Counted from the stretch's first letter, positions 32,817 to 56,330 are shown. The stretch is 64,000 bases of DNA from Paracoccaceae bacterium (GCA_050299555.1 JBNKWA010000077.1:15490-79489); one strand, 5' to 3'. Numbers and translations: made by a program. The notes: generated by a model from the letters alone, not told the origin.

Positions 32817-32896
32817 GTCCCCACCGCGTCCCCACCGACGTTAACACTTTAATTGTTTTATTTCAAAGCGTTAGGTATGCGTCCCCGTGGGGACGC
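32817..32896 (-). repeat. GGGGAC-repeat element, copy A1 (80 bp)
   Basis: Forward strand reads GTCCCCAC-CGC-GTCCCCAC-CGACGTTAACACTTT...AT-rich...GCGTCCCCGTGGGGACGC. Confidence 0.8.
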
Positions 32897-32971
32897 CTGT
32901 TCTGGTGCGCAGCTGGTGCCTCTTGGTGCGACAAGGGGCGCGAGATAGGCGGCCCGGCGCGCGACACCGAT

Positions 32972-33039
32972 GTCCCCGGACCGTCCCCACGGGATTTGCC
33001 ACGATTCCAGTACCTTGACCCCCCGTCCCCATGGGGACG
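32972..33039 (-). repeat. GGGGAC-repeat element, copy A2 (68 bp)
   Basis: Forward strand reads GTCCCC-GGACC-GTCCCCAC...CGTCCCCATGGGGACG. Same orientation as A1, 75 bp away. Confidence 0.8.
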
Positions 33040-33071
33040 CTGCTCGCGGGGCGCGATACCGGCGTTGCGGT

Positions 33072-33713
33072 CTATCCGCCGGTCGCCGCCACCAGCGCGT
33101 CGTAGGCAGCGGTGAAGCCGGTCAGCGACAGCGTAAGAACCACGGGCTCCTCGGGCAGTCCGATCGAGCGCAGGGTCACGGTCGCCTTGGCGCCACGCTT
33201 CAGGGTCGACACGCCGCCGTCATCGACGCCGAAACGGGCGAAGCAGCCCGAGCGGGTGCACCAGTTGAAGGGATAGGTGGCAGCGGCATTGGAATCGACC
33301 TGCACCGAAAGTCCCGCCGTCAGCAGCGTGCCGAGCGGCGTCACCACCGTGGCGCCAGCGGTCGCCTCGGCTTCCGCGGGCAGCTTGATCATCGAGAACT
33401 CCACGACCGGGTTGTCGTCCTGATCGCGCAGAAGCTGGTAGAGGAAGCAGTCCGCCTTGTCGGGCGTGCAGCGCAGTTCCCAGTCTCCGAACGCCTCGGT
33501 AATGAACTCCGGTTCGGCCGGCGCGGCGGGTGCCGCTTCCGCTGGATCGGCTGCTGCGGGCGCGTCGGCGGCGTCGGATGCAGCAGGCGCGTCGGCTCCG
33601 ATCTCGGTCTGAACCGAGGCCGCGCCGCTGGCTTCCTGTGCAGTTGCCGCCACTGGCAAAAAGGTCGCCAGGGCAATGGCGGCCAGGCCGCAAAATAGGC
33701 TCTTGCTATGCAT
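33072..33713 (-). CDS. Invasion-associated locus B (IalB) family periplasmic protein
   Basis: 213 aa, signal peptide, Ala/Pro-rich linker, then FGDWELRC...CFLYQ...NWCTRSGCFARF, typical of the IalB family. Confidence 0.8.
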   Translation of the reverse strand: MHSKSLFCGLAAIALATFLPVAATAQEASGAASVQTEIGADAPAASDAADAPAAADPAEAAPAAPAEPEFITEAFGDWELRCTPDKADCFLYQLLRDQDDNPVVEFSMIKLPAEAEATAGATVVTPLGTLLTAGLSVQVDSNAAATYPFNWCTRSGCFARFGVDDGGVSTLKRGAKATVTLRSIGLPEEPVVLTLSLTGFTAAYDALVAATGG

Positions 33714-33820
33714 CCACGTGCCTCGATCATGTCGGTTTTGTCGGGCGCACAGGTGTCACCCCGCGTCGCCGCTGTCAATGTATGCCCGGTCACGATCGCT
33801 TCCGTTGGCGACCCGCCAAC

Positions 33821-33847
33821 AAAAAAGGTACCCCGGAAGGTACCTTT
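33821..33847 (-). terminator. Rho-independent terminator-like hairpin on the minus strand
   Basis: The minus strand reads AAAGGTACC-TTCCGG-GGTACCTTT followed by TTT(G). Immediately followed by a second perfect hairpin GTTGGCG-GGT-CGCCAAC (33804-33820). Confidence 0.5.
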
Positions 33848-33951
33848 CTGCGCTGCCTAGCAGCCTTCTCTCCCTGCCGGACTGGCCGACTTATGGGACG
33901 GCACGCTAGGCGGCGAAATCCCGTCCGTCAACAGTTCGTTGACCTCAATTC
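33821..33951 (-). ncRNA. Candidate roughly 130-nt structured sRNA, or terminated 5' leader of the ialB-like gene
   Basis: Minus-strand TTGCCC-N17-TAAAAA promoter-like element (33986-33958). Predicted stems GUCAAC/GUUGAC, GGACGG/CCGUCC and GCUGC-UAG-GCAGC, then the terminator at 33821-33847. No ORF. Confidence 0.3.
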
Positions 33952-34125
33952 GATCAATTTTTAAAGGCATTCCGGCCGTTGGGCAAAAAAATGGCCGCGC
34001 GAGACGCACGGCCAGTTCAACAGGGAGGAAGTCAGCACCGCCGGGCGATTGCCCCTTGATGCAGTTCCATTGATGACATCAAAAGGTTAACCAAAGATGT
34101 TGCATTCCGCACAATTCTCACGGGG

Positions 34126-35688
34126 ATGGCGAACAGAATGACCGATGGCACCGTTTTTGTGGGTGGCGGTGGAACCGACTACGCCGAGGCGCAGTCGCTG
34201 ATCCTGAAATACGGCAATCGGCACGGTTTGATTGCCGGCGCTACGGGAACCGGCAAGACGGTTACCTTGCAGATCCTTGCCGAAGGACTGTCAGCCGCGG
34301 GCGTGCCGGTATTCCTTTCCGACGTAAAGGGCGACGTCTCCGGCATTGCCGCGGCCGGCAGCCCGGAGCACAAACTTCACGAAAAGCTGGTCGAGCGCGC
34401 CAACAAGATCGGACTGCCGGATTATACCTACCGGTCGTTTCCGGTCACCTTCTGGGATCTTTTCGGCGAAAAGGGCCATCCGGTCCGGACCACGATCAGC
34501 GAGATGGGTCCGCTTCTGCTGTCCCGGCTGCTGGAGCTGAGCGAGGCCCAGGAGGGTGTTCTCAACATCGCCTTCCGAATTGCCGATGACGAGGGATTGC
34601 CGCTGCTCGACCTGAAAGACCTGCGGGCCCTGCTGATCTGGCTCGGCGAGAATGCCAAGGATGTCTCGCTGAAATACGGCAACGTCACGACCGCTTCCAT
34701 TGGTGCGATCCAGCGGCGGCTGATCGTTCTGGAGAACCAGGGCGCGGAGCAGTTCTTTGGCGAGCCGGCGCTGGACCTGACCGACATGATTGCAACCACG
34801 GCCGATGGTGAGGGCCGGGTGAACGTGCTGGCCGCGGATCGGCTGATGGGCTCCCCGCGCCTTTACGCAACGTTCCTTCTGTGGCTTCTGTCCGAGCTTT
34901 TCGAGCAGTTGCCCGAGGTGGGCGACCCGGACAGGCCGGTCTTCGTGTTCTTCTTCGATGAGGCGCATCTGCTGTTCGAGGATGCCCCCAAGGCGCTGGT
35001 CGACAAGGTCGAGCAGGTGGCACGACTGATCCGCTCCAAAGGTGTCGGCGTCTACTTCATCACCCAGAACCCCGACGACGTGCCGGCGGACATTCTGGGC
35101 CAGCTCGGCAACCGGGTGCAGCATGCGCTGCGGGCCTACACGCCACGGGACCAGAAGGCGCTGCGGGCCGCGGCCGAAACGTTCCGTCCCAACCCGGCCT
35201 TCGACACCGAAACCGCGATCCGCGAAGTCGGCACCGGTGAGGCGGTGGTCTCGCTGCTTGAGAATAAAGGTGTGCCCAGTATCGTCGAGCGTACGCTGAT
35301 CCGGCCACCCTCGTCACGGCTGGGCCCGCTGGGGGACGACGAGCGCAAGGCAGCGATGGCCAAATCCCCGCTGGCAGGGCGCTACGATACCCCGGTCGAC
35401 CGCGACAGTGCCAGCGAGATGCTGGCCAGGCGCGCTGACAAGGCGGCCGAGGAAGCTGCCGCGGCCGAGGCGGCGGAAGAGACCCGCGAGTTCAAGAATG
35501 CCCGGCGATACGACGACACAAGCTACTCGGGTGGAAGTGTTCGCAGTAGTACGAACCGCAGCACCAGCCGTTCGCGCAGCGACACCATTGGTGAGACGCT
35601 GGTCAAATCGGTGATCAAGACCGCCACCTCGCGCTCCGGCCAACAGTTCATTCGCGGTGTCCTGGGAAGCCTGTTCAAGTCCCGCTGA
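34126..35688 (+). CDS. DUF853 / HerA-like P-loop ATPase (YjgR family)
   Basis: 520 aa. Walker [13 protein letters not shown], Walker [13 protein letters not shown]. Basic, low-complexity C-terminus. Confidence 0.85.
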
Positions 35689-35748
35689 CCGGCGGATTCC
35701 GGCGTCCGGATTCGGCCAGATTACACCCGATTTCGGCCCCCTGACCAA

Positions 35749-35827
35749 GCGTCCCCATGGGGACGCTATGTCAAGCCATTGATAATATTATGTAAAAGTG
35801 TTAACGCCGATGGGGACACGTGGGGAC
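35749..35827 (+). repeat. GGGGAC-repeat element, copy B (79 bp)
   Basis: GCGTCCCCATGGGGACGC...TTGATAATATTATGTAAAAGTGTTAACGCCGA-TGGGGAC-ACG-TGGGGAC. Confidence 0.8.
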
Positions 35828-35876
35828 AGGGCCCCCGCAGAGCCGATGGCGGGGTGGATTGCCGCGCCCGATCCGG

Positions 35877-37175
35877 TCAGCCCAGCTTTCTCAGCCGCAG
35901 CCGCGTCAGGCGGTTCTTTTCGCGCTCAAGCACCTCGATGCGGAAGCCGTGGAAGCTGAACACCTGCCCGGCGGTGGGGATGGTCTGCGCCTCGTGGATC
36001 ACCAGTCCGGCAATGGTATTGGCTTCCGTGTCGGGCAGAGCCCACTCGCAGGCCCGGTTGAGGTCCCTGATCGTCATCGACCCATCGACGGTGACCGTGC
36101 CGTCGCGCTCGCGCTTGACGGTTGTCCCGGCGGTATCGTGCTCGTCGGCGATCTCGCCAACAATTTCCTCGAGAATGTCCTCGAGCGTGATCAGCCCGCT
36201 CAGTGCGCCGTACTCGTCGACAACCAGGGCGAAGTGGCTGCGCCGTCGCAGGAACTCGCGCATCTGGTCGTCAAGAGTGGTGGTTTCCGGGACGAAATAG
36301 GGCTTCATCGCCACCTGCATGACGTCGAAACTGTCAAGCGCGCCGCCGCTGGTCAGTAGCTTGTGCACCGCGCGCAGCAGGTCCTTGGCGTGCAGCACGC
36401 CGACGATGTTCTCTTGGTCGTCGCGGTAGATCGGCAGGCGGGTGTAGGGCGAGCCGAGCGCCTGCTCGAGAATCGCCGCGGGCGGGGTGTCCACGTCGAT
36501 CATCTCGATCGACTGGCGGTGCAGCATGATCTCCTCAACCTCTCGCTCGCCGAGATCGAGAGCGCCGAGGAGCCTGTCGCGGTCGGCCTTTTCCACCGCA
36601 CCCTCGGAGTGGTGCAGCGCAATCGCGCCCGCCAATTCGTCGCGTGCTGAAAGCACATGGGCGCTGGGGTCGGTCTCGACGCCGACGGCGCCCAGCATCC
36701 AGTTGACAAGGGCCCGAACCAGGGTGACGACAGGCGAAAGCGCCAGCACCACCACCTGCACCGGCTGGGCGACCATGCGCGAGGCGCGCTCGGGATTGGT
36801 GATGGCATAGGTCTTCGGCATGACCTCCGAAAAGACCAGCACAAGCGCCGTCATCACCACGGTGGCCACCGCCACACCGCTATCACCCATCAGCCGGGTG
36901 AACAGGCTGGTCGCCAGTGCCGCCGACAGGATGTTGACGATATTGTTGCCCAGCAGCACCGAGCCGATCAGCCGCTCGCTGTCCTCGGTCAGCTTCAAGG
37001 CAGTCTCGGCGCCCCCTTCGCCGCGATCGGCCATCGAGCGCAGCTTGCCGCGGTTCGACGCGGTCAGGGCCGTTTCCGAGCCGGAGAAGAAGGCAGACAG
37101 CATCAGCAGCACCAGGATGGCGATGCCGGTTCCCCACACGGCCAATCCGCCGACCATTGCATCGCCCGTATCCAT
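35877..37175 (-). CDS. Hemolysin/CNNM-family protein (DUF21 TM domain + CBS pair + CorC_HlyC)
   Basis: Start moved to the ATG at 37175 (MDTGDAMVGGLAVWGTGIAILVLLMLSAFFSGSETAL). The upstream 117 codons of the track ORF overlap the xerD 3' region. Confidence 0.9.
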   Translation of the reverse strand: MDTGDAMVGGLAVWGTGIAILVLLMLSAFFSGSETALTASNRGKLRSMADRGEGGAETALKLTEDSERLIGSVLLGNNIVNILSAALATSLFTRLMGDSGVAVATVVMTALVLVFSEVMPKTYAITNPERASRMVAQPVQVVVLALSPVVTLVRALVNWMLGAVGVETDPSAHVLSARDELAGAIALHHSEGAVEKADRDRLLGALDLGEREVEEIMLHRQSIEMIDVDTPPAAILEQALGSPYTRLPIYRDDQENIVGVLHAKDLLRAVHKLLTSGGALDSFDVMQVAMKPYFVPETTTLDDQMREFLRRRSHFALVVDEYGALSGLITLEDILEEIVGEIADEHDTAGTTVKRERDGTVTVDGSMTIRDLNRACEWALPDTEANTIAGLVIHEAQTIPTAGQVFSFHGFRIEVLEREKNRLTRLRLRKLG

Positions 37176-37371
37176 GCTCACGCCCGTATCTGTTGCAGCC
37201 AGGCCCGTGCGGGCCTCTAACTCTCGTATGAGCGCGAAGGATAGCGGATACAAGGTGCCGGCGCCGCGGGATTTTGGACAGATCGATGGTCCGGAGCTGC
37301 TGTTCGGCGGCGCGTATTGACGCGCTGGTGGCCCAGCGAGGAGACGCTGCCGCCCGAGTTGCGGCGCAGCG

Positions 37372-38307
37372 CTATTGTTTCGCCAGCGGGTGGTGCTCCA
37401 GCACCAGTGCCTTGAGGCGCTCTTCCACCACGTGCGTGTAGATCTCGGTGGTGGCGACGCTGGCATGGCCAAGCAGCGTCTGAATGGTCCGCAAGTCCGC
37501 GCCGTGGGCGAGAAGATGGGTTGCAAAGGCGTGACGAAGCGCGTGCGGCGTCAGTCGCTCGGGCGGGATGCCCGCTGTCGGCGCGATCTCCTTGACCAGC
37601 CCGTGAAAACGGACCCGAGTCAGGTGCCCGGCCTTGCCGAAGGACGGGAACAGAAAGACCGAGCGCCGGCCGCCCTGGGCCAGCGCCGCGTCCTCGGCAG
37701 CGTCACGCGCGACCAGCCAGGTCGCTGTAGCCGCACGGGCCGGCACCGACAACGGGACCATGCGCTCGCGCCCGCCCTTGCCCCTGACCAGGATCATCGC
37801 CGGATCGCCGCGCACTGCCGCCACCGGCAGCGACACCAGTTCGCTCACCCTCAGCCCGGTCGCATACAGCAGCTCGAACAGGCAGGCATTGCGCAGGCGC
37901 TCGTTCTCGTTGCGGCCATGTGTATGGGCTGCGGCTAGGAGGCGCGACACTTCCTTCTCGCCCAGGGTGACCGGCAATTTGCGCACCGGCTTGGGGCCGC
38001 TGAGCCGGGCTGCGGGGTTGTCGGTGCGCAGCCCCTCCTCATAGAGAAAGCGGAACAACCCGCGTATGGCCGACAGGCGCCGCGCCCGCGTTGCCGCCGA
38101 CAGGTCCTCGGCCAGCATGGCGCTTGCATAGTCCTCGATGGCGGCCTGGTCGGTGTGCTTCAGGCCGCTGTCCCGCATCGTCAGATAGGCGGTAAAGTCC
38201 CTCAGGTCGCGGCCATAGGCCAGGATCGTATTGCGCGCAGCGTTGCGCTCGGCCTGGATTGCATCGAGAAACAAGGCCACCCACCCCAGGTCCGCATTGG
38301 AACTCAT
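37372..38307 (-). CDS. xerD: Site-specific tyrosine recombinase XerD
   Basis: 311 aa. N-terminal SAM-like domain, catalytic ...HALRHAFATHLLAHGADLRTIQTLLGHASVATTEIYTHV. Confidence 0.9.
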   Translation of the reverse strand: MSSNADLGWVALFLDAIQAERNAARNTILAYGRDLRDFTAYLTMRDSGLKHTDQAAIEDYASAMLAEDLSAATRARRLSAIRGLFRFLYEEGLRTDNPAARLSGPKPVRKLPVTLGEKEVSRLLAAAHTHGRNENERLRNACLFELLYATGLRVSELVSLPVAAVRGDPAMILVRGKGGRERMVPLSVPARAATATWLVARDAAEDAALAQGGRRSVFLFPSFGKAGHLTRVRFHGLVKEIAPTAGIPPERLTPHALRHAFATHLLAHGADLRTIQTLLGHASVATTEIYTHVVEERLKALVLEHHPLAKQ

Positions 38308-39869
38308 GCCTCGTCCTGCAGCAGCAGCATTTCCAGCGCCACCCGCCGCGCCTGGCGCTCCAGCCCGCCCTGTCGCAGGGCATAAAGCGCGGCCTCCAGA
38401 TCGCCGGGGTCGGTTGACAGCCCGGTGTCAAGAAGCCCCAGTGCACCGATCAGCGCCTCCCCGAAGCGCGATCCGAAAAGCGATGCCAGCTGCTCGGCCT
38501 CCACTGTGGGTGGATCGATGGCGGTCAGCCCGGTGATCACCGCCCGCTCGACTTCGCCAAAGGTCGTCGTGCCCGGCAGTGGCCCGGAACCTTCGGCTAG
38601 GGCCTGCAGCAAGCGCTCCGATGGTGTCGGTGAGGTCCGCTGCCAGCGCTGGGCGGCGCCCGGGTCCGCGGCCAGCAGCAGCAGCGTGTGGACCAGGCCG
38701 ATGTCTTCGTCAGGAAATCCGTCGCGGGGCAACGCCTTCAGGGCCTGCCGGTAAGCGTGCGCAAAGGCGTCGCGCAGGCCATTCGCCGAAAACAGCCGGT
38801 CGGCAACTTCCAGCTCTGCGGCAACCGCAGCGACCTTGCCGGTCGCCAGGGCCGTGTCCAGCCGCTGCACGGCCGCGGCGCGATCCCACACGCCGCCCGA
38901 TGCCGCCGGCCGCCCGGCGCGATAGGCCGCAAAAAGCGGTGCCTCGGGAATCGCGCCGCTTCGGACCAGACGCTCGGCCGCCAGCATCCGGCTGCGAATC
39001 GGCGCGTGCTCCGGCAGGTCGAGATGCAGAAAGGCGTTCGGAACGGTGCCGGCGCCGCGCGGCAGGGCCACCGCCTCCCGGATGCTCAGCTCCAGCGGCG
39101 TCATCGGGTCCGAGGGCGGTGGCGCTTCTGTGCCCTCGAAAAGCTGTGGATCCAGAAACCGCGCCAGCAGTTCCTCCTGATCAGCGCCGATCTCTCCGAT
39201 GTCGTGCCCGAGCTTCAGGGTCAGCGCGGCCGCCTTCCAGTCGCCCAGCCGTGCCAGGCAATAGACCCGTGCGGGAAGAGTGGGCGACAGCGACGGACTG
39301 TCGCCGAGCATCGAGCAGTATTCGTCCTGATGCCCGGTCAGCAGGCCGATGTCGAAGCCCCGCCGGAACAGCGCCGGGTCGGTTGGCCCGGCCTCGTCGA
39401 TCAGTGCCTCGGCATTGTCGAGGTCGCCGATCTGAATCAGTCGGTCGATGCGCGCCAGCAGCAGTAGCGGACGCCCCGCACTGCTGGCCGGAGCATCGGT
39501 GCGTGCCAACAGCAGTTGCTTGAACAGTGCCTGTGCCGCGGGAACGCCGTCGGCGCGATGGTTCAGGATCAGCGCTCGCGCCCGCAGGGCCGAAGTGCCG
39601 CCCCAGACATCTTCGGGAAAGCCGGTCTGGGCGGGGGTAAGCAGCCCCAGCCCGTCGCGGTTGACCCCGTCGAGAACTGCAACGCTGATCTCCGTCTCAC
39701 CCTCGGCGGGTTTGGGCAGTTCCGGCGGCGCGGTGCGGACGCTTTCGGTCAGCCATGGAATCGCGCTGCGCGGCCCCTCCGCCAACGCGCTGCCAACGCC
39801 GATCGCCGAGGCGAACATCACCAGGGGCAGGGCCCACACGCTAGGCACGCCTGGCACGGCCACACTCAA
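38304..39869 (-). CDS. Conserved hypothetical secreted/periplasmic helical protein (start uncertain, 39818-39869)
   Basis: Long ORF with coding-like composition. Putative signal peptide ..VPSVWALPLVMFASAIGVGSALA. Stop overlaps the xerD start (ATGA). A TTG at 39869 overlaps the stop of an upstream micro-ORF. No recognisable domain. Confidence 0.6.
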   Translation of the reverse strand: MSVAVPGVPSVWALPLVMFASAIGVGSALAEGPRSAIPWLTESVRTAPPELPKPAEGETEISVAVLDGVNRDGLGLLTPAQTGFPEDVWGGTSALRARALILNHRADGVPAAQALFKQLLLARTDAPASSAGRPLLLLARIDRLIQIGDLDNAEALIDEAGPTDPALFRRGFDIGLLTGHQDEYCSMLGDSPSLSPTLPARVYCLARLGDWKAAALTLKLGHDIGEIGADQEELLARFLDPQLFEGTEAPPPSDPMTPLELSIREAVALPRGAGTVPNAFLHLDLPEHAPIRSRMLAAERLVRSGAIPEAPLFAAYRAGRPAASGGVWDRAAAVQRLDTALATGKVAAVAAELEVADRLFSANGLRDAFAHAYRQALKALPRDGFPDEDIGLVHTLLLLAADPGAAQRWQRTSPTPSERLLQALAEGSGPLPGTTTFGEVERAVITGLTAIDPPTVEAEQLASLFGSRFGEALIGALGLLDTGLSTDPGDLEAALYALRQGGLERQARRVALEMLLLQDEA

Positions 39870-40006
39870 CCGCCGGCGCTGGACGGCGAGACCGGGACCA
39901 CGATCTCCCGCTGCGGCGGCGGCAGTTCCGAAAAGATGGCATAGCCAACCACCCCGACACCGACCAGTATGGCCAGGTAGAAAAGATACCTGAGCAGCCG
40001 CCCCAT
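39866..40006 (-). CDS. Possible 46-aa single-TM micro-protein
   Basis: Not in the track (below 60 aa). MGRLLRYLFYLAILVGVGVVGYAIFSELPPPQREIVVPVSPSSAGG. GAGAGG-like RBS about 8 nt upstream. Its TGA overlaps the TTG of the next ORF (TTGA). Confidence 0.35.
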   Translation of the reverse strand: MGRLLRYLFYLAILVGVGVVGYAIFSELPPPQREIVVPVSPSSAGG

Positions 40007-40112
40007 CGCCTTGCCTCTCGCGCGGGATCTCGTGGTCCCGCTGCTTGTTTCTGCGGTGGAACTTAGCCGCTTGCATGGTTTACATCAATGCCAAGCGGGC
40101 TGACGGAGCGGT

Positions 40113-40739
40113 ATGGGGCAGCGAGGCGCAATCGGCGGCGGAGCGAGCGGGTCCGGTGGCGGGGCAGGCCTCGGCAGGTCGATCGTTCTGGTCGGCCTCA
40201 TGGGCGCCGGCAAGACCTCGGTCGGCCGTCGCCTGGCGGCCACTCTTGGCGTGCCCTTCGTCGACTCCGATGCCGAGATCGAAAAGGCCGCCGGCATGGC
40301 GATCGGCGACATCTTCGAGCGCTTCGGCGAGGCGGATTTCCGTGCCGGCGAACGCAAGGTGATCCTCCGACTCCTGGGTGAGCCGCCGGCGGTGATCGCC
40401 ACCGGCGGCGGCGCCTTCATGTCGGGTGAGACGCGGGCGGCCGTCGCCGAAAAGGCGACATCCGTTTGGCTCGACGCGGCGCTCGACGTGCTGTGGGAGC
40501 GGGTCAAGGACAAGCCCCATCGGCCGCTCCTGCGGGCTCCGCAGCCGCGGCAGGTGCTGGCCGAACTTCTCGCTCATCGCTCACCCATCTACGCACTCGC
40601 CGACGTCCGGATCGAATCGCAGGCCGGGGTGCCTCATGACGAGATGGTTCGGGCCATCCTCGCCGGCATCGCCACCCATGACGGGGCCAATCCCGGGCGC
40701 GGCCCCACCCTTTTGCAAAGTCCAGCCAATGCCAACTGA
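40113..40739 (+). CDS. aroK: Shikimate kinase
   Basis: Walker A LVGLMGAGKTSVGRRLA, DSD, GGGA motifs. The Gly-rich N-terminal extension makes the start uncertain. Confidence 0.9.
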   Translation: MGQRGAIGGGASGSGGGAGLGRSIVLVGLMGAGKTSVGRRLAATLGVPFVDSDAEIEKAAGMAIGDIFERFGEADFRAGERKVILRLLGEPPAVIATGGGAFMSGETRAAVAEKATSVWLDAALDVLWERVKDKPHRPLLRAPQPRQVLAELLAHRSPIYALADVRIESQAGVPHDEMVRAILAGIATHDGANPGRGPTLLQSPANAN

Positions 40740-42714: not shown

Positions 42715-42721
42715 GATCGGT

Positions 42722-44190: not shown

Positions 44191-44192
44191 CC

Positions 44193-45011: not shown

Positions 45012-45067
45012 TTGCGACGCGCGGGCTTTTGCCCTAAACCGCCGCCCTCAAGCATCGAGGGATCGTC

Positions 45068-46099: not shown

Positions 46100-46135
46100 G
46101 CGCGTGGGCGCCTAGATAGACGGCGGGAGGCTGCC

Positions 46136-46579: not shown

Positions 46580-46591
46580 TCGGTTCTTAAC
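46576..46591 (+). promoter_or_regulatory. Near-consensus CtrA box cTAA-N7-TTAAC upstream of the endolysin gene
   Basis: CTAATCGGTTCTTAAC overlaps the ccmE stop codon, about 60 nt upstream of the GTG at 46651. One mismatch to TTAA-N7-TTAAC. Confidence 0.3.
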
Positions 46592-46650
46592 CAGCCCAGC
46601 GCAGCTTCTCCGGCCTGTCATTCCCGACATTGTCAGCCGGAGGCCACGAC

Positions 46651-47858: not shown

Positions 47859-47938
47859 CATTGTACCCCGCACAGGATGGGCTTTGACTTGCCGGTCTGG
47901 CCACCGGCAAGAAAAGCGCGAGAACCGGGGGGCCCGCC

Positions 47939-48835
47939 ATGCCATACTACGAATTCGACTGGATCGACGCCTTCACGCTGACGCCGTTCGGCGGCAACGG
48001 CTGCGCCGTCATCCACGGCGCGGATGACCTCGACCCCGACTGCTGCACCGCCATCGTGCGCGAGACCGGACTTGTGGAATGTGCCTTCGTGGTGACATCG
48101 GACAAGGCCGATTTCGGCGCCCGCTACTACCTCGCCGACCGCGAGATCCCGATGGCCGGGCACCCGACGGTGGCTACGATCCGCTCGCTGATCCACCGCG
48201 GTCTTGTCGACCTCTCGACCGGCCGCGCCGAGCTGACGCTCGAGCTTGGGGCCGGCGTCATGCCCATCGAGGTCACTGTTGAGAACGACGAGCCGCTGAT
48301 CACCATGACCCAGGCGCGCCCGGTCTTCGGTTCGCGCCAGGAACCGGCCACCATTGCCGCCCTGTACAGGCTCGACGCCGCCGACATCGTCGGTACGCCC
48401 CGGATCGTTTCCACCGGCACACCCTTCTGCGTCACCGTCCTCACTGCGCAGTCGGCACTGAAGAAGGCCCGGCTCGACTTCGACCGCCTCGTCGCGTGGC
48501 GTGCGACAAGCGGCGAAAGCCAGGCCGCATTGTTGGAGCCGTTCCTTGTCACCCTTGGCGGCGCTACCCCCGATGGCGACACGTTCTCGCGCCTTCTCCT
48601 CGCCCCGCCGCTGCCGGCCGAGGATCCGTTTACCGGCGCCGCCACCGGCTGCATGGCCGCCTATCTCTGGGCCGAGGGTCTGATCGACGCCCAGCGCTTC
48701 ATCGCCGAGCAGGGCCACTGGCTCGGTCGTCCCGGCAATGCCCGGGTCGAAGTCCTGGGCCCCCAGGACGATATCGCCGGGGTGCGCGTCGCCGGCCACG
48801 GCACGGTGCTCATGGAAGGCCGGCTGCGGCTCTGA
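47939..48835 (+). CDS. PhzF-family isomerase-like protein
   Basis: 298 aa. FTLTPFGGNGCAV...ETGLVECAFV and a second-half repeat typical of the PhzF/DAP-epimerase-like fold. Confidence 0.85.
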   Translation: MPYYEFDWIDAFTLTPFGGNGCAVIHGADDLDPDCCTAIVRETGLVECAFVVTSDKADFGARYYLADREIPMAGHPTVATIRSLIHRGLVDLSTGRAELTLELGAGVMPIEVTVENDEPLITMTQARPVFGSRQEPATIAALYRLDAADIVGTPRIVSTGTPFCVTVLTAQSALKKARLDFDRLVAWRATSGESQAALLEPFLVTLGGATPDGDTFSRLLLAPPLPAEDPFTGAATGCMAAYLWAEGLIDAQRFIAEQGHWLGRPGNARVEVLGPQDDIAGVRVAGHGTVLMEGRLRL

Positions 48836-48943
48836 GACTCCCTGGGCGTGGCGCCTGCGTCGACATGTCCGGATATACCACGTTAGGGTGATTTGAAGCC
48901 GGCGCCGCGCCGCCTATACTCCGCCGCGAAACGGAGGCCAGAA

Positions 48944-50926
48944 GTGATCGCCGAACTCGGACATCTCGCTCTCGTCCTCGCCTTCCTGGTCGCGATCGTG
49001 CAGACGGTCGTGCCGATGGCGGGGGCGCATTTCCGCTGGGCCGACTGGATGGCGTTGGCGGTGCCCTCGGCGCTGATCCAGTTTGCGCTGACGGCCGCCG
49101 CCTTCGCGGCGCTGGTGCACGCCTTCGTGACCTCGGACTTCTCGCTGTCGGTGGTGGTGCAGAACTCGCACTCGCTCAAGCCGATGCTCTACAAGGTCAC
49201 TGGAACCTGGGGCAATCACGAGGGCTCGCTCTTGCTCTGGGTGCTGATCCTGACCCTTTTCGGCGCCATGGTGGCGCTGTTCGGCGGCAACCTGCCCGCC
49301 AGTCTCAAGGCCCGGGTGCTGGCGGTGCAGGCCTCGATCGCCGCCGCTTTCTTCGGCTTCCTGCTCTTCACCTCAAACCCGTTCCTGCGCCTCTCGGCCC
49401 CGCCGTTTGACGGCCACGACCTCAACCCGCTGCTGCAGGACCCTGGCCTCGCCTTCCACCCGCCCTTCCTTTATCTCGGCTATGTCGGCCTCTCGATGGC
49501 CTTCTCCTTCGCTGTGGCCGCGCTGATCGAGGGCAAGGTCGATGCCGCCTGGGCGCGCTGGGTGCGGCCGTGGACGCTGGCCGCCTGGATGTTCCTGACC
49601 ATCGGCATCGCGCTCGGCTCGTGGTGGGCCTATTACGAGCTCGGCTGGGGTGGCTTCTGGTTCTGGGATCCGGTCGAGAATGCCAGCTTCATGCCCTGGC
49701 TGATCGCCGGCGCGCTCTTGCATTCTGCCATCGTGGTGGAAAAGCGTGAGGCGCTGAAGAGCTGGACCATACTGCTGGCGATCCTCGCGTTCTCGTTCTC
49801 GCTGATCGGCACTTTCATCGTTCGCTCGGGGGTGCTCACCTCGGTTCACGCCTTCGCCAGCGATCCGTCCCGCGGTGTCTTCATCCTCGCCATCCTGACC
49901 GTCGCCATCGGCGGCTCACTGACGCTCTTTGCAGCACGGGCGCATGTGCTTGCCACCAGTTCCGTCTTCGGGCTGGTCAGCCGCGAGGCGGGGCTGGTGC
50001 TGAACAACCTGCTGCTGGTCGTGGCCGCGCTTGTGGTCTTCATGGGTACCGTCTGGCCGCTGATCGCCGAGCTCGCCTTTGGCTCCCAGGTCTCGGTCGG
50101 GCCGCCCTATTTCGAATGGGTGTTCACCCCGTTCATGATCGTCCTCGCGCTGATCCTGCCCATCGGCGCGGTGCTGCCGTGGAAGCGGGCGCGGCTCGGC
50201 CGGGCGGCGCGGCCCATGACCGGCATCGCGGCACTGGCGGTGGCGCTGGGCGGGCTGGCTTTCGCCATGCAGACCGGCCGTTCGCCCCTCGGCCCGGTCG
50301 GTGCTGCCCTCGGCGCCTGGCTGGTGCTGGGTGCGCTCGCCGACTTCGCCCGGCGGCTCAGGCTCGGAACCGGGCCGCTTTTGGAATCCATGCGCCGCGC
50401 CGGCGGCCTGCCGCGCTCGGAATGGGGCAAGCTGCTGGCCCATGCGGGGCTCGGGCTGACCATCTTCGCTGTCGCCGCCATCGACGCCTGGAAGGTCGAG
50501 GACATCCGCGCCGCGCGCCCAGGCGACAGCTTTGCGGTCGGCCCCTACGAGGTCGAATTCGCCGGGGTGACGCCGGTAGAGGGGCCCAACTACCAGGCTG
50601 AAGAGGCGACGCTGGTCGTCACCCGGGCCGGGCAGCCGGTGGCCACGCTGCACCCGCAGAAGCGGTTCTATCCGGTGCAGCGGATGCCCACCACCGAGGC
50701 CGGCATCGACCGCGGCATTACCCGCGACCTCTACCTGGTGCTCGGTGACCGTCAGCCTGACGGCAGCTATGCGGTGCGCAGCTTCATTCGCCCCTTCGCC
50801 AACTGGATCTGGGGCGGCGCCATCATCATGGCGCTGGGCGGATTCCTCAGCCTCACCGACCGGCGCTACCGGGTCGGGGCACCTGCCCGTCGCGCCGCGC
50901 CGACGGCTGCAGTACCGGCCGAATGA
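48944..50926 (+). CDS. ccmF: Heme lyase CcmF/NrfE (Ccl1)
   Basis: GTG at 48944 after GGAGG. WGGFWFWDPVENASFMPW WWD motif. About 15 TM. Confidence 0.95.
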   Translation: MIAELGHLALVLAFLVAIVQTVVPMAGAHFRWADWMALAVPSALIQFALTAAAFAALVHAFVTSDFSLSVVVQNSHSLKPMLYKVTGTWGNHEGSLLLWVLILTLFGAMVALFGGNLPASLKARVLAVQASIAAAFFGFLLFTSNPFLRLSAPPFDGHDLNPLLQDPGLAFHPPFLYLGYVGLSMAFSFAVAALIEGKVDAAWARWVRPWTLAAWMFLTIGIALGSWWAYYELGWGGFWFWDPVENASFMPWLIAGALLHSAIVVEKREALKSWTILLAILAFSFSLIGTFIVRSGVLTSVHAFASDPSRGVFILAILTVAIGGSLTLFAARAHVLATSSVFGLVSREAGLVLNNLLLVVAALVVFMGTVWPLIAELAFGSQVSVGPPYFEWVFTPFMIVLALILPIGAVLPWKRARLGRAARPMTGIAALAVALGGLAFAMQTGRSPLGPVGAALGAWLVLGALADFARRLRLGTGPLLESMRRAGGLPRSEWGKLLAHAGLGLTIFAVAAIDAWKVEDIRAARPGDSFAVGPYEVEFAGVTPVEGPNYQAEEATLVVTRAGQPVATLHPQKRFYPVQRMPTTEAGIDRGITRDLYLVLGDRQPDGSYAVRSFIRPFANWIWGGAIIMALGGFLSLTDRRYRVGAPARRAAPTAAVPAE

Positions 50927-51393
50927 CCCGCCTCGGCACCGTTCTCGCCGCGATGGCGCTCCTGGCCGCCGCGCCGGCTCCGGCAGTGCAGCCCGACGAG
51001 GTGCTGGATGACCCCGGCCTCGAGGCGCGTGCCCGGGACCTGTCGGCAGGGCTCCGCTGCCTGGTCTGCCGCAACGAGTCCATCGACGAATCCAATGCCG
51101 GGCTGGCCCGCGACCTGCGCCTTCTGGTGCGCGAACGCCTTACCGAGGGTGACAGCGACCAGGAGGTGCTCGATTTCATCGTCGCCCGCTATGGCGACTA
51201 CGTGCTCCTGAGGCCTCGCCTCGCCGGCAGCAACCTCGTCCTCTGGCTTACCGCGCCGGTGCTGCTGCTGGCCGGCGCCGGCGTCGCCGTGATCTACCTG
51301 CGCGGACGCGCACGCGGCCAGACCCCGGCAAGGCTCTCGGAGGCCGAGGAGAAAAAGCTCGCCGCGCTTCTTGAACGCGAAGGCGACGCCTGA
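50923..51393 (+). CDS. ccmH: Cytochrome c-type biogenesis protein CcmH (Ccl2)
   Basis: LRCLVCRNESIDESNAGLARDLR CxxC motif. ATGA overlap with ccmF. Confidence 0.9.
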   Translation: MTRLGTVLAAMALLAAAPAPAVQPDEVLDDPGLEARARDLSAGLRCLVCRNESIDESNAGLARDLRLLVRERLTEGDSDQEVLDFIVARYGDYVLLRPRLAGSNLVLWLTAPVLLLAGAGVAVIYLRGRARGQTPARLSEAEEKKLAALLEREGDA

Positions 51394-51485
51394 TCCCACC
51401 CCGCTCCCCGGGTCTGACCCCACGTCCTGCTTTCCCGGCGGCCCGGCCTCCGTTAGCCTGACCGCCCGAAAGGAAAGGGCCGGCC

Positions 51486-52262
51486 ATGTCTGACGATCCG
51501 CTGCTCTATGCCCTCGCCGATGGCGTCGCCACGCTGACGCTGAACCGCCCCGAGGTGATGAACGGGCTCAGCACCGATCTGCGGCAGGCGCTGACCGCCG
51601 GGATCGCCCGGGCCAGCGCCGAGGCGCGGGTGATCGTCCTGACCGGGGCCGGCCGCGGCTTCTGCTCCGGCCAGGATCTGAGCGATGCCGGCGATCTGGC
51701 CAGCCTCGATCTCGAGGCGGTGCTGAACGACGAATACGTGCCGATGCTCCGGGCGATCTACGACTGCCCGCTGCCCACCATCGCTGCGGTCAACGGCCCG
51801 GCGGCCGGGGCAGGCGCCAATCTCGCGCTCGCCTGCGACGTGGTGATCGCCGCCGAATCGGCCACCTTCATCCAGGCTTTCGCCCGCATCGGCCTGGTGC
51901 CCGACGCTGGCGGCACCTATTGGCTGCCGCGCCAGATCGGCCTGCCGCGGGCCATCGGCGCGGCGCTTTTCGCCGAGCCGGTCAGTGCCGCGCAGGCCGA
52001 GGAATGGGGGATGATCTGGCAGGCGGTGCCGGATGCCGAGTTCCCGGCCACGGTCGCCACCCGGGCGCGCCAACTCGCCAACGGTCCCACCGGCACCTAC
52101 CGGCTGATCAAGCAGGCGCTGAGGGCGAGCTTCGAGAACGGGCTCGCGCCGCAGCTGGCGCTCGAGGCGGCGCTGCAGGGCGAGGCCGGCAAGTCCGCCG
52201 ATTTCCGCGAGGGCGTGGCGGCCTTCCTCGAGAAACGCCCGGCAAGGTACCAGGGGCGCTGA
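51486..52262 (+). CDS. Enoyl-CoA hydratase/isomerase family protein (PaaG-like)
   Basis: 258 aa. Crotonase fold: VLTGAGRGFCSGQDL, AAVNGPAAGAGANLALACD. Confidence 0.9.
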   Translation: MSDDPLLYALADGVATLTLNRPEVMNGLSTDLRQALTAGIARASAEARVIVLTGAGRGFCSGQDLSDAGDLASLDLEAVLNDEYVPMLRAIYDCPLPTIAAVNGPAAGAGANLALACDVVIAAESATFIQAFARIGLVPDAGGTYWLPRQIGLPRAIGAALFAEPVSAAQAEEWGMIWQAVPDAEFPATVATRARQLANGPTGTYRLIKQALRASFENGLAPQLALEAALQGEAGKSADFREGVAAFLEKRPARYQGR

Positions 52263-52389
52263 AGAACGGGTGCGATTGATCGAGGGAATGCCCGAGCGGC
52301 GTCTTGCTGCCACCTGGCCGGTTCGCTTCTGGTCCTCGTCACCGCAGACGTTCCGCGATTTCGGCACCGGCCTGTTGGGGCGTCACCCC

Positions 52390-52776
52390 TCAGGCGGCCC
52401 GGCTGCTGTCCGGCCCCGCCGCGGCCCGGCCGTCATGCCCCGCCACCAGCTCGTCCAGCATCGGTGACAGGTCCTCCACCCGCTTCGCGATCACATGCAC
52501 CACCCGCCCGTCGCGCTGGATCGGGCCGGTGACCCTCAGCAGTCGCCCGGCGATCACCGCCCGGCGGTTGGCCGCATAGACCTGGGCCCAGACCACCACG
52601 TTGGCGACCCCGGTCTCGTCCTCCAGGGTGACGAAGATGACCCCCTTCGCCGTGCCCGGACGCTGGCGCACCAGCACCAGCCCGGCGACCGTGACAGTGG
52701 CGCCCGCAGGCGGCAGGTGCAGCATGCAGGCGGGCAGGGCGGCAGGCGGGCGGGGCCAGTCATAAGGCTCGAGCAT
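52390..52776 (-). pseudogene. C-terminal OB-fold remnant of error-prone DNA polymerase DnaE2 (128-codon ORF)
   Basis: [38 protein letters not shown]...[15 protein letters not shown] matches the conserved DnaE2/DnaE C-terminal OB domain. No polymerase core, imuA or imuB is nearby. The upstream part of track ORF 52390..53094 is antisense to fdx. Confidence 0.6.
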
Positions 52777-52778
52777 GA

Positions 52779-52793
52779 GAACATAATAGGAAC
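52779..52793 (-). promoter_or_regulatory. Alphaproteobacterial SOS (LexA) box GTTC-N7-GTTC
   Basis: The minus strand reads GTTCCTATTATGTTC, ending 2 nt before the ATG of the dnaE2 remnant, within a local AT-rich patch. Confidence 0.5.
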
Positions 52794-52893
52794 AATATTC
52801 GCGCCGATCAAGCGTGGCCAGCCGGCCGTCACCGCCCCGTCGGCACCGTCCGCTCCCCGATTCGGGGTGGCGGTGCCGGCAAGGGCGCATTAG

Positions 52894-53256
<363 letters not shown>

Positions 53257-53262
53257 GCCGCC

Positions 53263-54513
53263 CTAGCGGCCGCCCGGCCCCAGCGCCCGCCAGCCGATGT
53301 CGCGGCGGCAGAACCCGCCCGGCCAGTCGATCCGCCCGACGATGCCATAGGCGAGGTCCCGCGCCTCGGCCAGGCTCGCCCCCCTTGCGGTGACGTTCAG
53401 CACCCGGCCGCCACTGGAAACCAGCCTGCCGTCCTCCGCCTTCGTCCCGGCATGGAAGACCTGCACCCGCGGGTCGGCGACCTCGGGCAGCCCGATCGCC
53501 TCGCCCTTCGCATAGGTGCCGGGATAGCCCTTGGCCGCCAGCACCACGGTGATGGCGTGATCCTCGGCCCAGTGCGGCCGCAGGGTGCCGAGCCGCCCCT
53601 CGGACGCCGCCAGCATCAGGTCCAGCGCCTGGGCGCCAAGCCGCAGCATCAGCACCTGGCACTCGGGGTCGCCGAAGCGGACATTGTACTCCACCAGCCG
53701 CGGGCGGCCGTCCTCGATCATCAGCCCGGCATAAAGCACTCCCTGATAGGGTGTGCCCCGGCGCGCCAGCTCGGCCAGCGTCGGGCGGATGATCGTCTCC
53801 ATTGCCAGCGCCTCGACCTCCGGGGTCAGCACCGGCGCCGGCGAATAGGCACCCATACCGCCGGTATTCGGCCCCTCGTCACCGTCAAAGGCGCGCTTGT
53901 GATCCTGGGCGCCGCCGATCGCCACCGCCGCCTCGCCGTCGCAGAGCACGAACAGCGAGGCCTCCTCGCCGGCCATGAATTCCTCGATCACCACCGGCGT
54001 GCCGTCCAGCATGTCGATGGCCGCCAGCGCCTCGGCCTCGGTCATCGCCACGGTAACGCCCTTGCCGGCCATCAGCCCGTCGGCCTTGATGACGATGGGC
54101 GCGCCGACCTCTTGCACATGGGCCCGAGCGGCCCCGGGGTCGGTGAATCGCGCCCAGGCGGCGGTCGGCGCGCCGCAGGCGTCGCAGATTTCCTTGGTGA
54201 AGGTCTTCGACGCTTCAAGCTCGGCCGCCGCCCGGTTCGGCCCGAAGGTCAGGAACCCGGCCGCCCTCAGCGCGTCCGCCACCCCGGCCGCCAGCGGCGC
54301 CTCGGGGCCGATGACGACGAAATCCGCCGCCACCTCGCGGGCCAGAGCTACCACCGCGTCCGCATCCTCGATATCGCAGGCCCGGCACTCGGCCAGCGCC
54401 GCGATCCCGGCATTGCCCGGTGCCGCCACCAGACGGTCGCATTGCGGGTTCTGCCGCATCGCCCAGGCCAGCGCGTGTTCGCGCCCACCGCCGCCGAGAA
54501 GAAGGATGTTCAT
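53263..54513 (-). CDS. purD: Phosphoribosylamine--glycine ligase
   Basis: The ATG at 54513 gives MNILLLGGGGREHALAWA..., 416 aa. The remainder of the 815-aa track ORF is antisense to xseA. Confidence 0.97.
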   Translation of the reverse strand: MNILLLGGGGREHALAWAMRQNPQCDRLVAAPGNAGIAALAECRACDIEDADAVVALAREVAADFVVIGPEAPLAAGVADALRAAGFLTFGPNRAAAELEASKTFTKEICDACGAPTAAWARFTDPGAARAHVQEVGAPIVIKADGLMAGKGVTVAMTEAEALAAIDMLDGTPVVIEEFMAGEEASLFVLCDGEAAVAIGGAQDHKRAFDGDEGPNTGGMGAYSPAPVLTPEVEALAMETIIRPTLAELARRGTPYQGVLYAGLMIEDGRPRLVEYNVRFGDPECQVLMLRLGAQALDLMLAASEGRLGTLRPHWAEDHAITVVLAAKGYPGTYAKGEAIGLPEVADPRVQVFHAGTKAEDGRLVSSGGRVLNVTARGASLAEARDLAYGIVGRIDWPGGFCRRDIGWRALGPGGR

Positions 54514-54666
54514 CGCCGTCCCCGCGCTGCCATGGCCCGCCGCATAGCGAAGCGCCGCCAGCGGGGCAAGCCCGGCGGCCCGCCGCGACCCCTCGCGCGG
54601 CGCAGCGCTGCAGGTGCCTGACCGGTCAACCCTTTCCCGTCGCGCGCCGATCGGGCATGACGGGGC

Positions 54667-56226
54667 ATGTCCGATCTGTTCGAAGACCCGAGCCCCGGCG
54701 GCAACGCACCGGAATTCACCGTCACCGAGATTTCCGGCGCCGTCCGCCGGGTCATCGAGGGCGAGTTCTCCCGGGTGCGGGTGCGGGGCGAGGTCGGCCG
54801 GGTATCGCGCCCCGGCTCGGGACACCTCTATTTCGACCTCAAGGATGACCGCTCGGTGCTTGCGGCAGTGTCGTGGCGGGCCCAGGCGGCACGCCTCACG
54901 GTCCGGCCCGAAGAGGGCATGGAGGTGATCGCCGTCGGCCGGCTGACCACCTTCGGCGCGCAATCGAAGTACCAGCTCGTGGTCGAGGAACTGCAGCTTG
55001 CGGGGCAGGGGGCACTGCTGGCGATGCTGGAGCGCCGCCGCAAGGCACTGGCGGCCGAGGGGCTGTTCGATTCGGCCCGCAAGCGGCCGCTGCCATACCT
55101 GCCGGCGGTGATCGGGGTCGTCACCTCGCCTTCGGGGGCGGTGATCCGCGACATCCTGCACCGCCTGCGCGACCGATTCCCGCGCGAGGTGCTGGTCTGG
55201 CCGGTGACCGTGCAGGGCACCAGGTGCGCCGACGAGGTGGCCGCCGCCATCCGCGGCTTCAACGCGCTTGCCCCGGGCGGCGCGCTGCCGCGCCCGGACG
55301 TGCTCATCGTTGCCCGGGGCGGCGGCTCGATCGAGGACCTCTGGGGCTTCAACGAGGAGGTCGTGGTGCGCGCCGCCGCGGCCAGCGACATCCCGCTGAT
55401 CTCGGCCGTGGGGCACGAAACCGACACCACGCTGATCGACCTCGCCGCGGATGTGCGGGCGCCGACGCCGACGGCAGCGGCGGAACTGGCGGTGCCGGTC
55501 CGGGCCGAGCTTCTCGCCACCGTCGCCGGGCTGGAGGAGCGCCGCCTGCGCGCCCTGGCCCGTTCCATGGAGCAGGCGCGGCAGCGGCTGCGCGATCTGG
55601 CCCGGGCATTGCCGCGACCCGAGGCGCTGACCGCCGAACGCGGCCAGCAGCTCGACCATCTCGCCACCCGCCACGCCGCGGCGCTGCCGCGCTTCATCGA
55701 CGGCCGGCATCGCCAGCTCGGCGCCATCGCCTTCCGACCGGAACGATTGGAAGGGCTGGTGGCCACCAAGAAGGCCAACCTCGACTCCGTCGCCGAGCGC
55801 CTGTCGACCAGGCTCGGCCGCGTGATCGAGCGCGGGCGCGACCGGTTGGCGGCGCAGCGGCTGTCGCCGGCGCGGCTGGAACAGCGCCGGGCCGAGGCCA
55901 CGCGCGGGCTGCTGCAGACTTCCGAGCGTCTGTCACGCGCCACCGGGGCCCAGCTCGCCGGCTGGCGGGGGCAACTCGACGGGCTCGAGCGGGTGCGCCA
56001 GACCGTCGGATACCGGGCGACGTTGAAACGCGGCTTCGCCGTGGTGCACGGGCCCGGCGGCGTCGTCGCCAGCCGCGATGCCGCGGCGGCCGAGGCGGCG
56101 CTGGAGATCGAGTTCGCCGACGGCCGCCTGCCGGTGGCTCCGGGCAATCCGCCCCCCGAGGCCCCATCCCGGCCGGCGCCGCGCCGAAAGACAGCCAGGG
56201 GCGATCCCCAGGGCAGCCTTTTCTGA
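54667..56226 (+). CDS. xseA: Exodeoxyribonuclease VII large subunit
   Basis: OB fold [28 protein letters not shown], catalytic [16 protein letters not shown], long coiled-coil C-terminus. Confidence 0.95.
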
Positions 56227-56262
56227 CAGATTTTGCGGCCCCGGGCATGCCGCGGTCGGCCT

Positions 56263-56330
56263 GTCCCCATGGGGACATGGGGTCAACATGTTGATATTGC
56301 TGCAATTCAAGTGGGGACACGTGTGGGGAC
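56263..56330 (+). repeat. GGGGAC-repeat element, copy C (68 bp)
   Basis: GTCCCCATGGGGAC-ATGGGGTCAACATGTTGATATTGCTGCAATTCAAG-TGGGGAC-ACGTG-TGGGGAC, between the convergent genes xseA and xthA. Confidence 0.8.

Follow-up and report, generated by a model that had tools for sequence, protein, structure and literature searches.

The 64,000-nucleotide stretch of Paracoccaceae bacterium DNA analyzed here (GCA_050299555.1, JBNKWA010000077.1:15490-79489; hereafter the window) contains, between positions 32,817 and 56,330, four copies of a short repeat, named A1, A2, B, and C. The four are real members of a small, non-coding, intergenic repeat family of marine Paracoccaceae that is apparently undescribed. 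The reading we prefer, at a probability of roughly 55%, is that the repeat is a dispersed element resembling either the BIME-1/RIB repeats of E. coli or a MITE (miniature inverted-repeat transposable element) that carries a site for integration host factor (IHF), and that its conserved words are probably read by a lineage-specific protein on IHF-bent DNA. The family is gained and lost, dispersed, and prone to turnover, and the timescale of gain and loss is that of genus-level divergence.

A sequence-only reading of the window had listed the four copies with their coordinates and strands and had placed all of them in gaps between convergent genes. All four were located where it put them (Table 1), in a convergent gap in each case. 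The occupied gaps separate the beta-ketoacyl synthase (KAS) and IalB genes (A1 and A2), the HerA-like ATPase and CorC-CNNM genes (B), and the XseA and Exo_endo_phos genes (C). These are three of about nine convergent gaps in the window, and no gap of any other type is occupied. The clustering of the four window copies is far beyond chance. There are four exact sites for GTCCCCAYGGGGAC, and when up to two mismatches are allowed the number of strand-matches rises to 12 against 2.15 expected, a value reached in none of 100 shuffles. The pattern GGGGAC-N2-8-GGGGAC is found four times (0.16 expected), always within a unit, and the units hold 16 of the 33 GGGGAC hexamers of the window. A profile built from the copies and run over the 64 kb detected no further full or partial copy. 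We also considered whether GGGGAC is specifically avoided outside the units and rejected the idea: a dinucleotide shuffle suggests a deficit (33 vs 58), but under a higher-order model 17 are observed against 17.6 expected, so that the deficit reflects a generic G-run bias.

Fourteen members, comprising the window copies and copies from elsewhere, were aligned and read on the strand opposite to the orientation used in the sequence-only reading. The unit is non-coding and 67-80 bp long. It is built on the word TGGGGAC, two inverted copies of which abut to give the perfect palindrome GTCCCCA|TGGGGAC, while about 53 bp away the word appears again as one or two same-strand copies, 10-12 bp apart. 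Within a unit, GTCCCC(A) at -33/-34 is followed by an AT-rich tract and a 13-nt block, and after a further 7 nt by the palindrome GTCCCCATGGGGAC at +20. In the 13-nt block the columns ..TCA....(C)TT. are invariant in 13 of 13 copies, and the GTCCCC heptamer occupies -33/-34 in all of them. The invariant block agrees with the IHF consensus WATCAANNNNTTR, and its register is fixed: the distal heptamer precedes it by 33 nt, and the palindrome follows at 20 nt. In 12 of the 14 members the best same-strand match to this consensus is positioned exactly 20 nt before the palindrome, with 0-2 mismatches; the match is perfect in four members (B, C, and the copies in L001 and L087) and has a single mismatch in four others. 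AT content over the 20 nt on the 5' side of the core is 50-85% in most copies, compared with 10-38% in the flanks, and an AT-rich tract on the 5' side is the canonical arrangement of an IHF site. Exact matches to the consensus number three in the whole window, where 0.17 would be expected, and two of the three are those in B and C, in the same register.

Measured from the core, the heptamers stand at about -44, -33, and -22, a spacing of one helical turn. A2 and C, the short copies, are without 11 nt of the linker, which brings their outer heptamer to -33/-34. The spacer had been described earlier as poorly conserved, AT-rich, and about 35-45 bp long. It is AT-rich, but its length is either 46 or 35 nt, and it has the invariant ..TCA....CTT. 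core at a fixed register. Likewise, the two direct hexamers are separated by N4-6 rather than the N3-5 first given, while the segment AAAGTGTTAACGyCG shared by A1 and B and the additional palindrome TCAACATGTTGA of copy C were both found as reported. The metagenomic subgroup has a single distal heptamer, which makes the double heptamer a subfamily trait. In one subgroup the palindrome is preceded by nTAGCG (ATAG or CTAG, with GTAG solely in L087), and in A2, C, L001, and L002 by CCCCnC in its place. We then scanned about 1 Mb for the same architecture with any word, defined as an IHF-like core with a perfect palindrome of 14 nt at a distance of 17-23 nt from its start and the same half-site about 33 nt upstream. 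The scan gave 14 matches, compared with none in five shuffles; all 14 were members already known, and no other word "alleles" were found in the sequence of relatives. The suggestion that the words are protein recognition sites is consistent with their fixed geometry around an IHF-like site.

At one orthologous site the words have been exchanged. L131/L132 (GCA_029976255.1) carry the orthologue of the copy in L103, with a nearly identical spacer and a downstream gene about 95% identical. The palindrome in L131, however, is GTCCTAGCTAGGAC instead of the GTCCCCATGGGGAC of L103, and the distal heptamer is GTCCTCA; dyad symmetry is kept. The earlier picture of conserved short words around a drifting spacer is thus only partly correct: the spacer contains a conserved IHF-consensus core, and between L103 and L131 it is the words that changed and the spacer that stayed the same. 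In an alignment of 12 sequences, changes on both sides affect five of the nine dyad pairs, a number reached in none of 500 shuffles. Among them are the two innermost pairs, which would be unable to pair in a hairpin loop. For the long-range helix between heptamer and palindrome the same alignment shows one compensatory pair, which was reached in 40 of 500 shuffles and is not significant. The dyad changes therefore speak less for a stem formed purely in RNA than for recognition of dyad symmetry in the duplex or for a concerted conversion to an allele specific to the lineage. L134, in which the gene order differs, provided no third state of this orthologous copy.

The palindrome end of the unit is always the gene-proximal end. 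At 9-10 of 15 loci it is found 0-70 nt past the stop codon of the gene read towards it, and three independent loci have it upstream of a start codon instead, at a distance of no more than about 100 nt (dinB in L001, an NmrA-like gene in L103/L131, and L104). Location in a convergent gap is a preference and not a rule, since a fifth copy of the source genome, E, sits in a co-directional gap. Unit orientation is mixed within 25 kb, which argues against a strictly strand-biased, IS200-like single-strand mechanism. The copies sit where insertion is tolerated.

Copy E was found in the 9 kb examined to the right of the window, 3.2 kb past its end, in the soxB/soxD gap. It is decayed, with mutations in the palindrome, which reads GTCCCTGTGGGGAT, and in both heptamers, but it retains the spacer core. 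The window matches a Paracoccaceae MAG (GCA_050298435.1), and with copy E the copies total five in about 73 kb of the source genome. Other genomes contain the element as well. In Pseudoruegeria sp. HB172150 (L001) it occupies the divergent gap between a reverse-transcriptase gene and dinB, and in a second Paracoccaceae metagenome-assembled genome (MAG), A1.bin.17, the convergent gap between an SdrD-like gene and a GDSL lipase gene. A looser pattern identified true relatives in at least eight metagenome contigs, six of them from one assembly (JAAUXY01); the kinase gene beside one of these copies has its closest named relatives in Paracoccaceae, at only about 43% identity. There were no copies on the viral contigs of IMG/VR or on the plasmids of PLSDB, and a plasmid or phage origin was rejected for this reason.

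Orthologous gaps in relatives are free of the repeat. The KAS/IalB gap, which measures 373 bp and holds two copies in the window, is 71 bp long in L004/L005 (where HerA is 85% identical), 6 bp in Halovulum (L006), and 203 bp in L129, and is copy-free in each. In the sister MAG L130 HerA and CorC likewise converge on a gap, here of 176 bp, in which there is a different hairpin, and L133, which has an 89% orthologue of the kinase beside the copy in L081, has no copy downstream of it. The sequence-only reading had named two things that would overturn its view: a match to a catalogued repeat family, or a genome without further copies together with relatives that show no empty or filled sites, which would point to chance or local duplication. 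What we found instead were further copies at non-orthologous sites in other genomes, copy-free orthologous gaps in relatives, and a decayed copy. We also considered A2 and B, an inverted pair around IalB, a small RNA (sRNA) gene, and HerA, as the ends of a composite transposon, and rejected this because the gene order is conserved in relatives that are without the repeats.

Several further features were seen at the loci outside the window. The 549-aa protein that lies across the Pseudoruegeria copy from dinB (L001 3300-4949, - strand) has a weak RVT_1 domain. The 3.4-kb metagenome contig L018 has a second, degenerate copy at about 1744-1830 (+ strand), with the words GTCTCAC and GTCCCAGCGAGGG and a spacer that is still recognizable (E = 0.036 with the spacer profile). 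A motif GGCGA(A/G)TCCGGGC, or its complement CCCGGAyTCGCC, is present on one or both sides of metagenomic copies (L018, L081, L083, L087, L103, L104, L109, and L131), and the similar CCGGATTCGG is found upstream of copy B in the window (35690-35720). In a lower-GC organism (L008, Ga0129327_10176106, 420-520), TGGGGACAAA occurs as a palindrome (TTTGTCCCCATGGGGACAAA) and as direct repeats about 11 bp apart, with the same word and grammar as the element described here, in an unrelated sequence context.

Table 1. Positions of the four repeat copies, their parts, and a neighboring palindrome, numbered from the first nucleotide of the window.
Feature	Position	Strand	Remarks
Copy A1, long type	32817..32896	-	
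A1 outer heptamer GTCCCCA	32817-32823		+ strand coordinates
A1 inner heptamer	32828-32834		+ strand coordinates
A1 IHF-like core TTTCAAAGCGTTA	32861-32873		1 mismatch
A1 palindrome GTCCCCGTGGGGAC	32881-32894		
Copy A2, short type	32972..33039	-	11-nt deletion
A2 outer heptamer GTCCCCG	32972-32978		at -33 from core
A2 inner heptamer GTCCCCA	32983-32989		
A2 weak IHF-like core TTCCAGTACCTTG	33005-33017		3 mismatches
A2 palindrome	33025-33038		end 31-33 nt from IalB stop codon
Copy B, long type	35749..35827	+	
B palindrome	35751-35764		starts ~60 nt past HerA-like stop codon
B exact IHF consensus TATCAATGGCTTG	35772-35784	-	
B heptamers TGGGGAC	35811-35817 and 35821-35827		CorC stop codon 49 nt further on
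Copy C, short type	56263..56330	+	
C palindrome	56263-56276		starts 36 nt past XseA stop codon
C exact IHF consensus TATCAACATGTTG	56284-56296	-	
C heptamers TGGGGAC	56312-56318 and 56324-56330		outer one at -34 from core
Separate palindrome, 21-bp stem, CCGGATCGCGCCCGGCCACGC...GCGTGGCCGGGCGCGATCCGG	32726..32783		flanked by A1 and the stop codon of KAS; a second motif, separate from the unit

Taken as a dispersed element whose words are read by a protein, the unit could work as follows. IHF would bend the linker sharply and so bring the distal heptamer and the palindrome together, since the two are roughly equidistant from the bend. A single oligomeric, lineage-specific protein could then bind the heptamers at the juxtaposed sites. 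This protein would most likely be the enzyme responsible, now or in the past, for spreading the element, for instance a transposase or a RAYT-like protein whose gene lies elsewhere in the genome, acting at bent sites in the manner of IS10, gamma-delta, the Mu ends, or BIME-1. The words can be replaced in concert, and where the unit is transcribed into a 3' untranslated region (UTR) the formation of a stable hairpin by the palindrome would be a side effect. Of the two options offered by the sequence-only reading, a non-autonomous mobile element or a set of protein sites, each has received part of the support: dispersal and turnover fit the first, and the fixed geometry fits recognition by a protein. 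We have filed the family as a small, IHF-site-bearing intergenic repeat that belongs neither to the REP sequences nor to the MITEs, because it fails the defining tests of both.

A number of observations weigh against this reading. As to spread, the strict composite pattern, scanned against about 185,000 representative genomes, has one site each in two of them; the five copy-free relatives, 77-89% identical in protein, are too distant for exact empty sites to be aligned; none of the 14 copies is bordered by a direct repeat that could be a target-site duplication; and inverted repeats at the ends extend over only 7 bp. The window consists of ordinary core chromosomal genes, which encode a conserved XerC/D-type recombinase but neither a transposase nor a RAYT protein, and no cognate protein for the heptamers was identified there. 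As to the sites themselves, copies outside the window were retrieved by means of the palindrome, so that its invariance among them is partly built in. The IHF site is predicted from a consensus match, the core of A2 has three mismatches to that consensus, and recurrence of the site amounts to roughly one independent event because the copies are homologous. Finally, the word change is known from one pair of sequences.

Much of the same evidence could be accommodated if the unit were a host architectural or regulatory site, selected rather than transposed. A chromosomal protein would then bind the TGGGGAC heptamers on an IHF-bent scaffold, and the looped complex formed at gene ends would hold up transcription like a roadblock, insulate supercoils, or separate convergent genes as a boundary. 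Several features fit such a site: the strict geometry with its helical phasing, the dyad symmetry maintained through the center of the palindrome, the location of all four window copies in convergent gaps (three of about nine), the gene-proximal position of the palindrome, and the lack of a nearby transposase and of target-site duplications. We nevertheless think it unlikely. The orthologous convergent gaps of five relatives are copy-free, including that of the sister MAG, where HerA and CorC are arranged alike; a copy is tolerated in decayed form; some copies occupy divergent or co-directional gaps; and no candidate regulator was identified. One operator type, that of CsoR/RcnR, was considered specifically and rejected: the resemblance of the palindrome to its C-tract/G-tract pseudopalindrome is formal, the required TAC/GTA flanks are missing, and a promoter context would be needed. 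More speculative still, and to our minds less probable, is the idea that the copies are working nucleoprotein sites and not relics of transposition. Here a Paracoccaceae protein would sit on three to four phased TGGGGAC words across an IHF U-turn, in a compact complex at gene ends, and would block read-through or insulate supercoiling between convergent genes, its specificity co-evolving with the sites (GTCCCCATGGGGAC to GTCCTAGCTAGGAC) to yield lineage-specific "alleles".

The unit could also act at the RNA level, as a 3'-UTR element. It might provide a hairpin that protects the mRNA 3' end or causes a pause, a competition among GUCCCC-GGGGAC pairings, or, on the other strand, a C-rich, G-poor Rho-loading segment followed by a pause hairpin. 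The position of the palindrome just past stop codons is suited to this, and the isolated palindrome folds as an RNA hairpin of -12.6 kcal/mol (z = -4.2). In full-length folds long-range pairing of the words is preferred, with a modest z of about -2, one compensatory change links the distal heptamer with the 3' half of the palindrome, and a count from the copy sequences shows that C exceeds G about 2:1 on the GTCCCC strand. We regard an RNA element as quite improbable, however. No intrinsic terminator was called in any unit and there is no U-tract, although the genome uses canonical U-tailed terminators and the same scanner finds that of the sRNA 1 kb away (33992-34014). No sigma-70-like promoter is present in any unit, ARAGORN called no tRNA in the units, and Rfam gave no match over them at gathering scores or at E values up to 10. 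RNAalifold returned only pairings of the invariant words, with no informative covariation among the GTCCCC-type copies, and the long-range pairs failed to reach significance. What is more, symmetry is maintained at the innermost positions of the palindrome, which would form the RNA loop, and the conserved block of the spacer is an unpaired motif that looks like a protein site. The alternative pairing of GUCCCC with GGGGAC proposed in the sequence-only reading is accordingly unsupported. An RNA side effect is plausible, without positive support.

A classical MITE, that is, a deletion derivative of an insertion sequence (IS) with GTCCCCA...TGGGGAC as its terminal inverted repeats and a parent transposase acting in trans, would account for the size, the AT-rich interior, the multiple copies, the copy-free orthologous gaps, the decayed copy, and the 7-bp inverted termini, and the 155-bp Correia element offers a parallel for the IHF site. 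This seems to us very improbable. None of the 14 copies has a target-site duplication, the inverted termini extend over only 7 bp and one of them is itself a full palindrome, no related IS was found in the approximately 1 Mb examined and none with such ends at any locus examined, and plasmids in PLSDB and viral contigs in IMG/VR hold no copies. The suggestion that the words are MITE termini thus fails on the missing duplications and the shortness of the repeats.

Derivation from tRNA-Glu (which starts with GUCCCCAUCG and ends with GUCCCCGUGGGGACGCCA), as a degenerate pseudogene or a leftover attachment site of an integrating element, was prompted by the tRNA-Glu genes of 71-72 nt that make up most of the listed metagenome matches to the loose pattern, by the 67-nt length of the unit on that strand, and by copies that extend the match by 2-3 nt (GTCCCCATCG, GGGGACGCC), but it is effectively refuted: the match follows from the search pattern itself, which acceptor and T-stem sequence satisfy, RF00005 gives no match at E values up to 10 and ARAGORN no call, there is no equivalent of the D, anticodon, or T arm, the middle of the unit is an IHF-like site, and the L131 allele departs from the tRNA words. 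Two further identities were rejected. Compared by eye with dif, the spacer of copy B is similar on the XerD-arm side alone and has no XerC arm, and relatives without the element also have the nearby XerC/D-type gene. The four G-runs that a G-quadruplex would use are, on inspection, present in some copies only.

Other features of the window are recorded here. The separate palindrome next to A1 (Table 1) belongs to a second family with arms GGATCGCGCCCG(G), of which there are exactly two in about 73 kb, the other being at L127 11561-11625. Each is just past a stop codon and beside a copy of the main element (A1 and the decayed E), which suggests a mosaic arrangement. Between IalB and the HerA-like gene, at 33987-34049 (- strand), there is a SorX/CcsR-like sRNA that contains the motif CCUCCCUGUUG and has a U-tailed terminator of canonical form. 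Its score with RF02784 is 38.9 bits (E = 3.7e-07; gathering score 46.6), and weaker matches to SorY and mmgR fall at the same place. Four CAGGGAA(A)TT repeats at about 19440-19620 (- strand), downstream of tRNA-Ser(cga) at 19773-19862, surround the sole other exact IHF consensus of the window (TATCAATGCGTTG, 19510-19522). An att-type site was considered at that location, but the neighbors are ordinary (a LysR regulator, an ABC transporter, and PxpABC-like genes). Adjacent Ku and LigD genes, the latter with LigD_N, ligase, and Prim-Pol domains, at 58872-59738 (- strand) and 59760-62216 (- strand), constitute a bacterial non-homologous end joining module. A 90-nt tRNA-Gln(ctg) called by ARAGORN inside xseA (54996-55085, + strand) has no Rfam support at the gathering score and is probably a false positive.

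Small dispersed repeats have been well studied in enterobacteria, pseudomonads, and Neisseria. A full-text search of the literature on roseobacters and Paracoccaceae found no matching repeat, no match to the palindrome string, and no paper joining MITE terms with Rhodobacteraceae. If the binding protein were found, the family would offer a tractable model for the co-evolution of a reader protein with its repeat words. The role of IHF-containing repeats at gene ends, which is not known to be settled for E. coli RIB/RIP, might come to light as well. More practically, the repeat is a possible marker for strain typing, and it may cause assembly breaks or mis-called open reading frames in Paracoccaceae MAGs.

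The closest analogue among known systems is E. coli BIME-1/RIB (RIP), in which two inverted REP units (y and z1) surround a conserved L linker with an IHF-binding site at the 3' ends of transcription units (PMC3333891). The earlier remark that the unit was not recognized as REP/BIME was therefore too strong, although the defining features of REP are absent. Like BIME-1/RIB, the unit is shorter than 100 bp, non-coding, dispersed, and extragenic, typically just past gene 3' ends (with the exception of the three loci upstream of start codons); its palindromic GC-rich words stand in inverted orientation around a conserved linker that contains an IHF consensus (PMC3333891); and it occurs as single units or short tandems (A1 with A2) and can adjoin other repeat motifs in a mosaic. 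Its inverted heptamers flank a 53-nt linker with the IHF consensus in a fixed register, but the two flanks are not equivalent REP units, one being a full palindrome and the other one or two single heptamers, and IHF binding is predicted. The words are of 7 nt and form a perfect palindrome of 14-18 bp (GCGTCCCCATGGGGACGC), whereas REP units are imperfect palindromes of 20-40 nt. The conserved GTAG on the 5' side of the REP hairpin foot is found in L087 only, no RAYT gene was identified, and the family lives in an alphaproteobacterial host. REP sequences number over 100 per genome and flank a RAYT gene; the approximately 73 kb covered of the source genome has five copies of the unit, and the window encodes no Y1 transposase.

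The differences in the palindrome bear on the comparison with REPIN/RAYT systems, in which REP doublets that form hairpins are mobilized by a single-copy Y1 transposase. RAYT proteins require a stem mismatch and GTAG, both absent here, and when Ton-Hoang et al. made a REP perfectly palindromic, binding of TnpA-REP was abolished. The long-range inverted repeat of the unit is 7 nt, so that no long REPIN hairpin is possible; in addition, the spacer has a protein-site-like core and orientation is mixed within 25 kb. The family nevertheless shares with REPINs its lineage-specific words, its persistence in a bacterial family with turnover within genomes, the inverted arrangement of words around a spacer, and the existence of decayed and word-variant copies.

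The Correia/NEMIS elements of Neisseria are likewise small intergenic repeats near gene ends, with an internal IHF site, inverted ends, and long and short forms that arise by internal deletion, and the IHF site of the 155-bp element binds IHF in vitro (PMC2229807). Correia elements, however, have 26-bp terminal inverted repeats and a TA duplication, whereas the repeats of the present unit measure 7 bp and no duplication accompanies them. In the short Correia form the 50-bp segment with the IHF site is gone, while the short form of the present unit is without 11 nt, one helical turn, and keeps its core.

The proposed logic of the unit is also that of the IS10 outside end, the gamma-delta/Tn3 ends, the Mu ends, lambda attP, and cosB, in all of which repeated sites for one protein flank an IHF bend that brings distant sites together. 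Those sites flank or belong to the element that encodes the protein, whereas the unit of about 70 bp stands alone, many times over; and where the arm and core sites of lambda differ in sequence, the sites of the unit all share one heptamer. The kind of element is already known, and the family is a compact, approximately 70-bp case of the BIME-1/Correia layout, with one word on both sides of a predicted IHF bend, in which unusually clean helical phasing and a natural word swap make a good experimental system.

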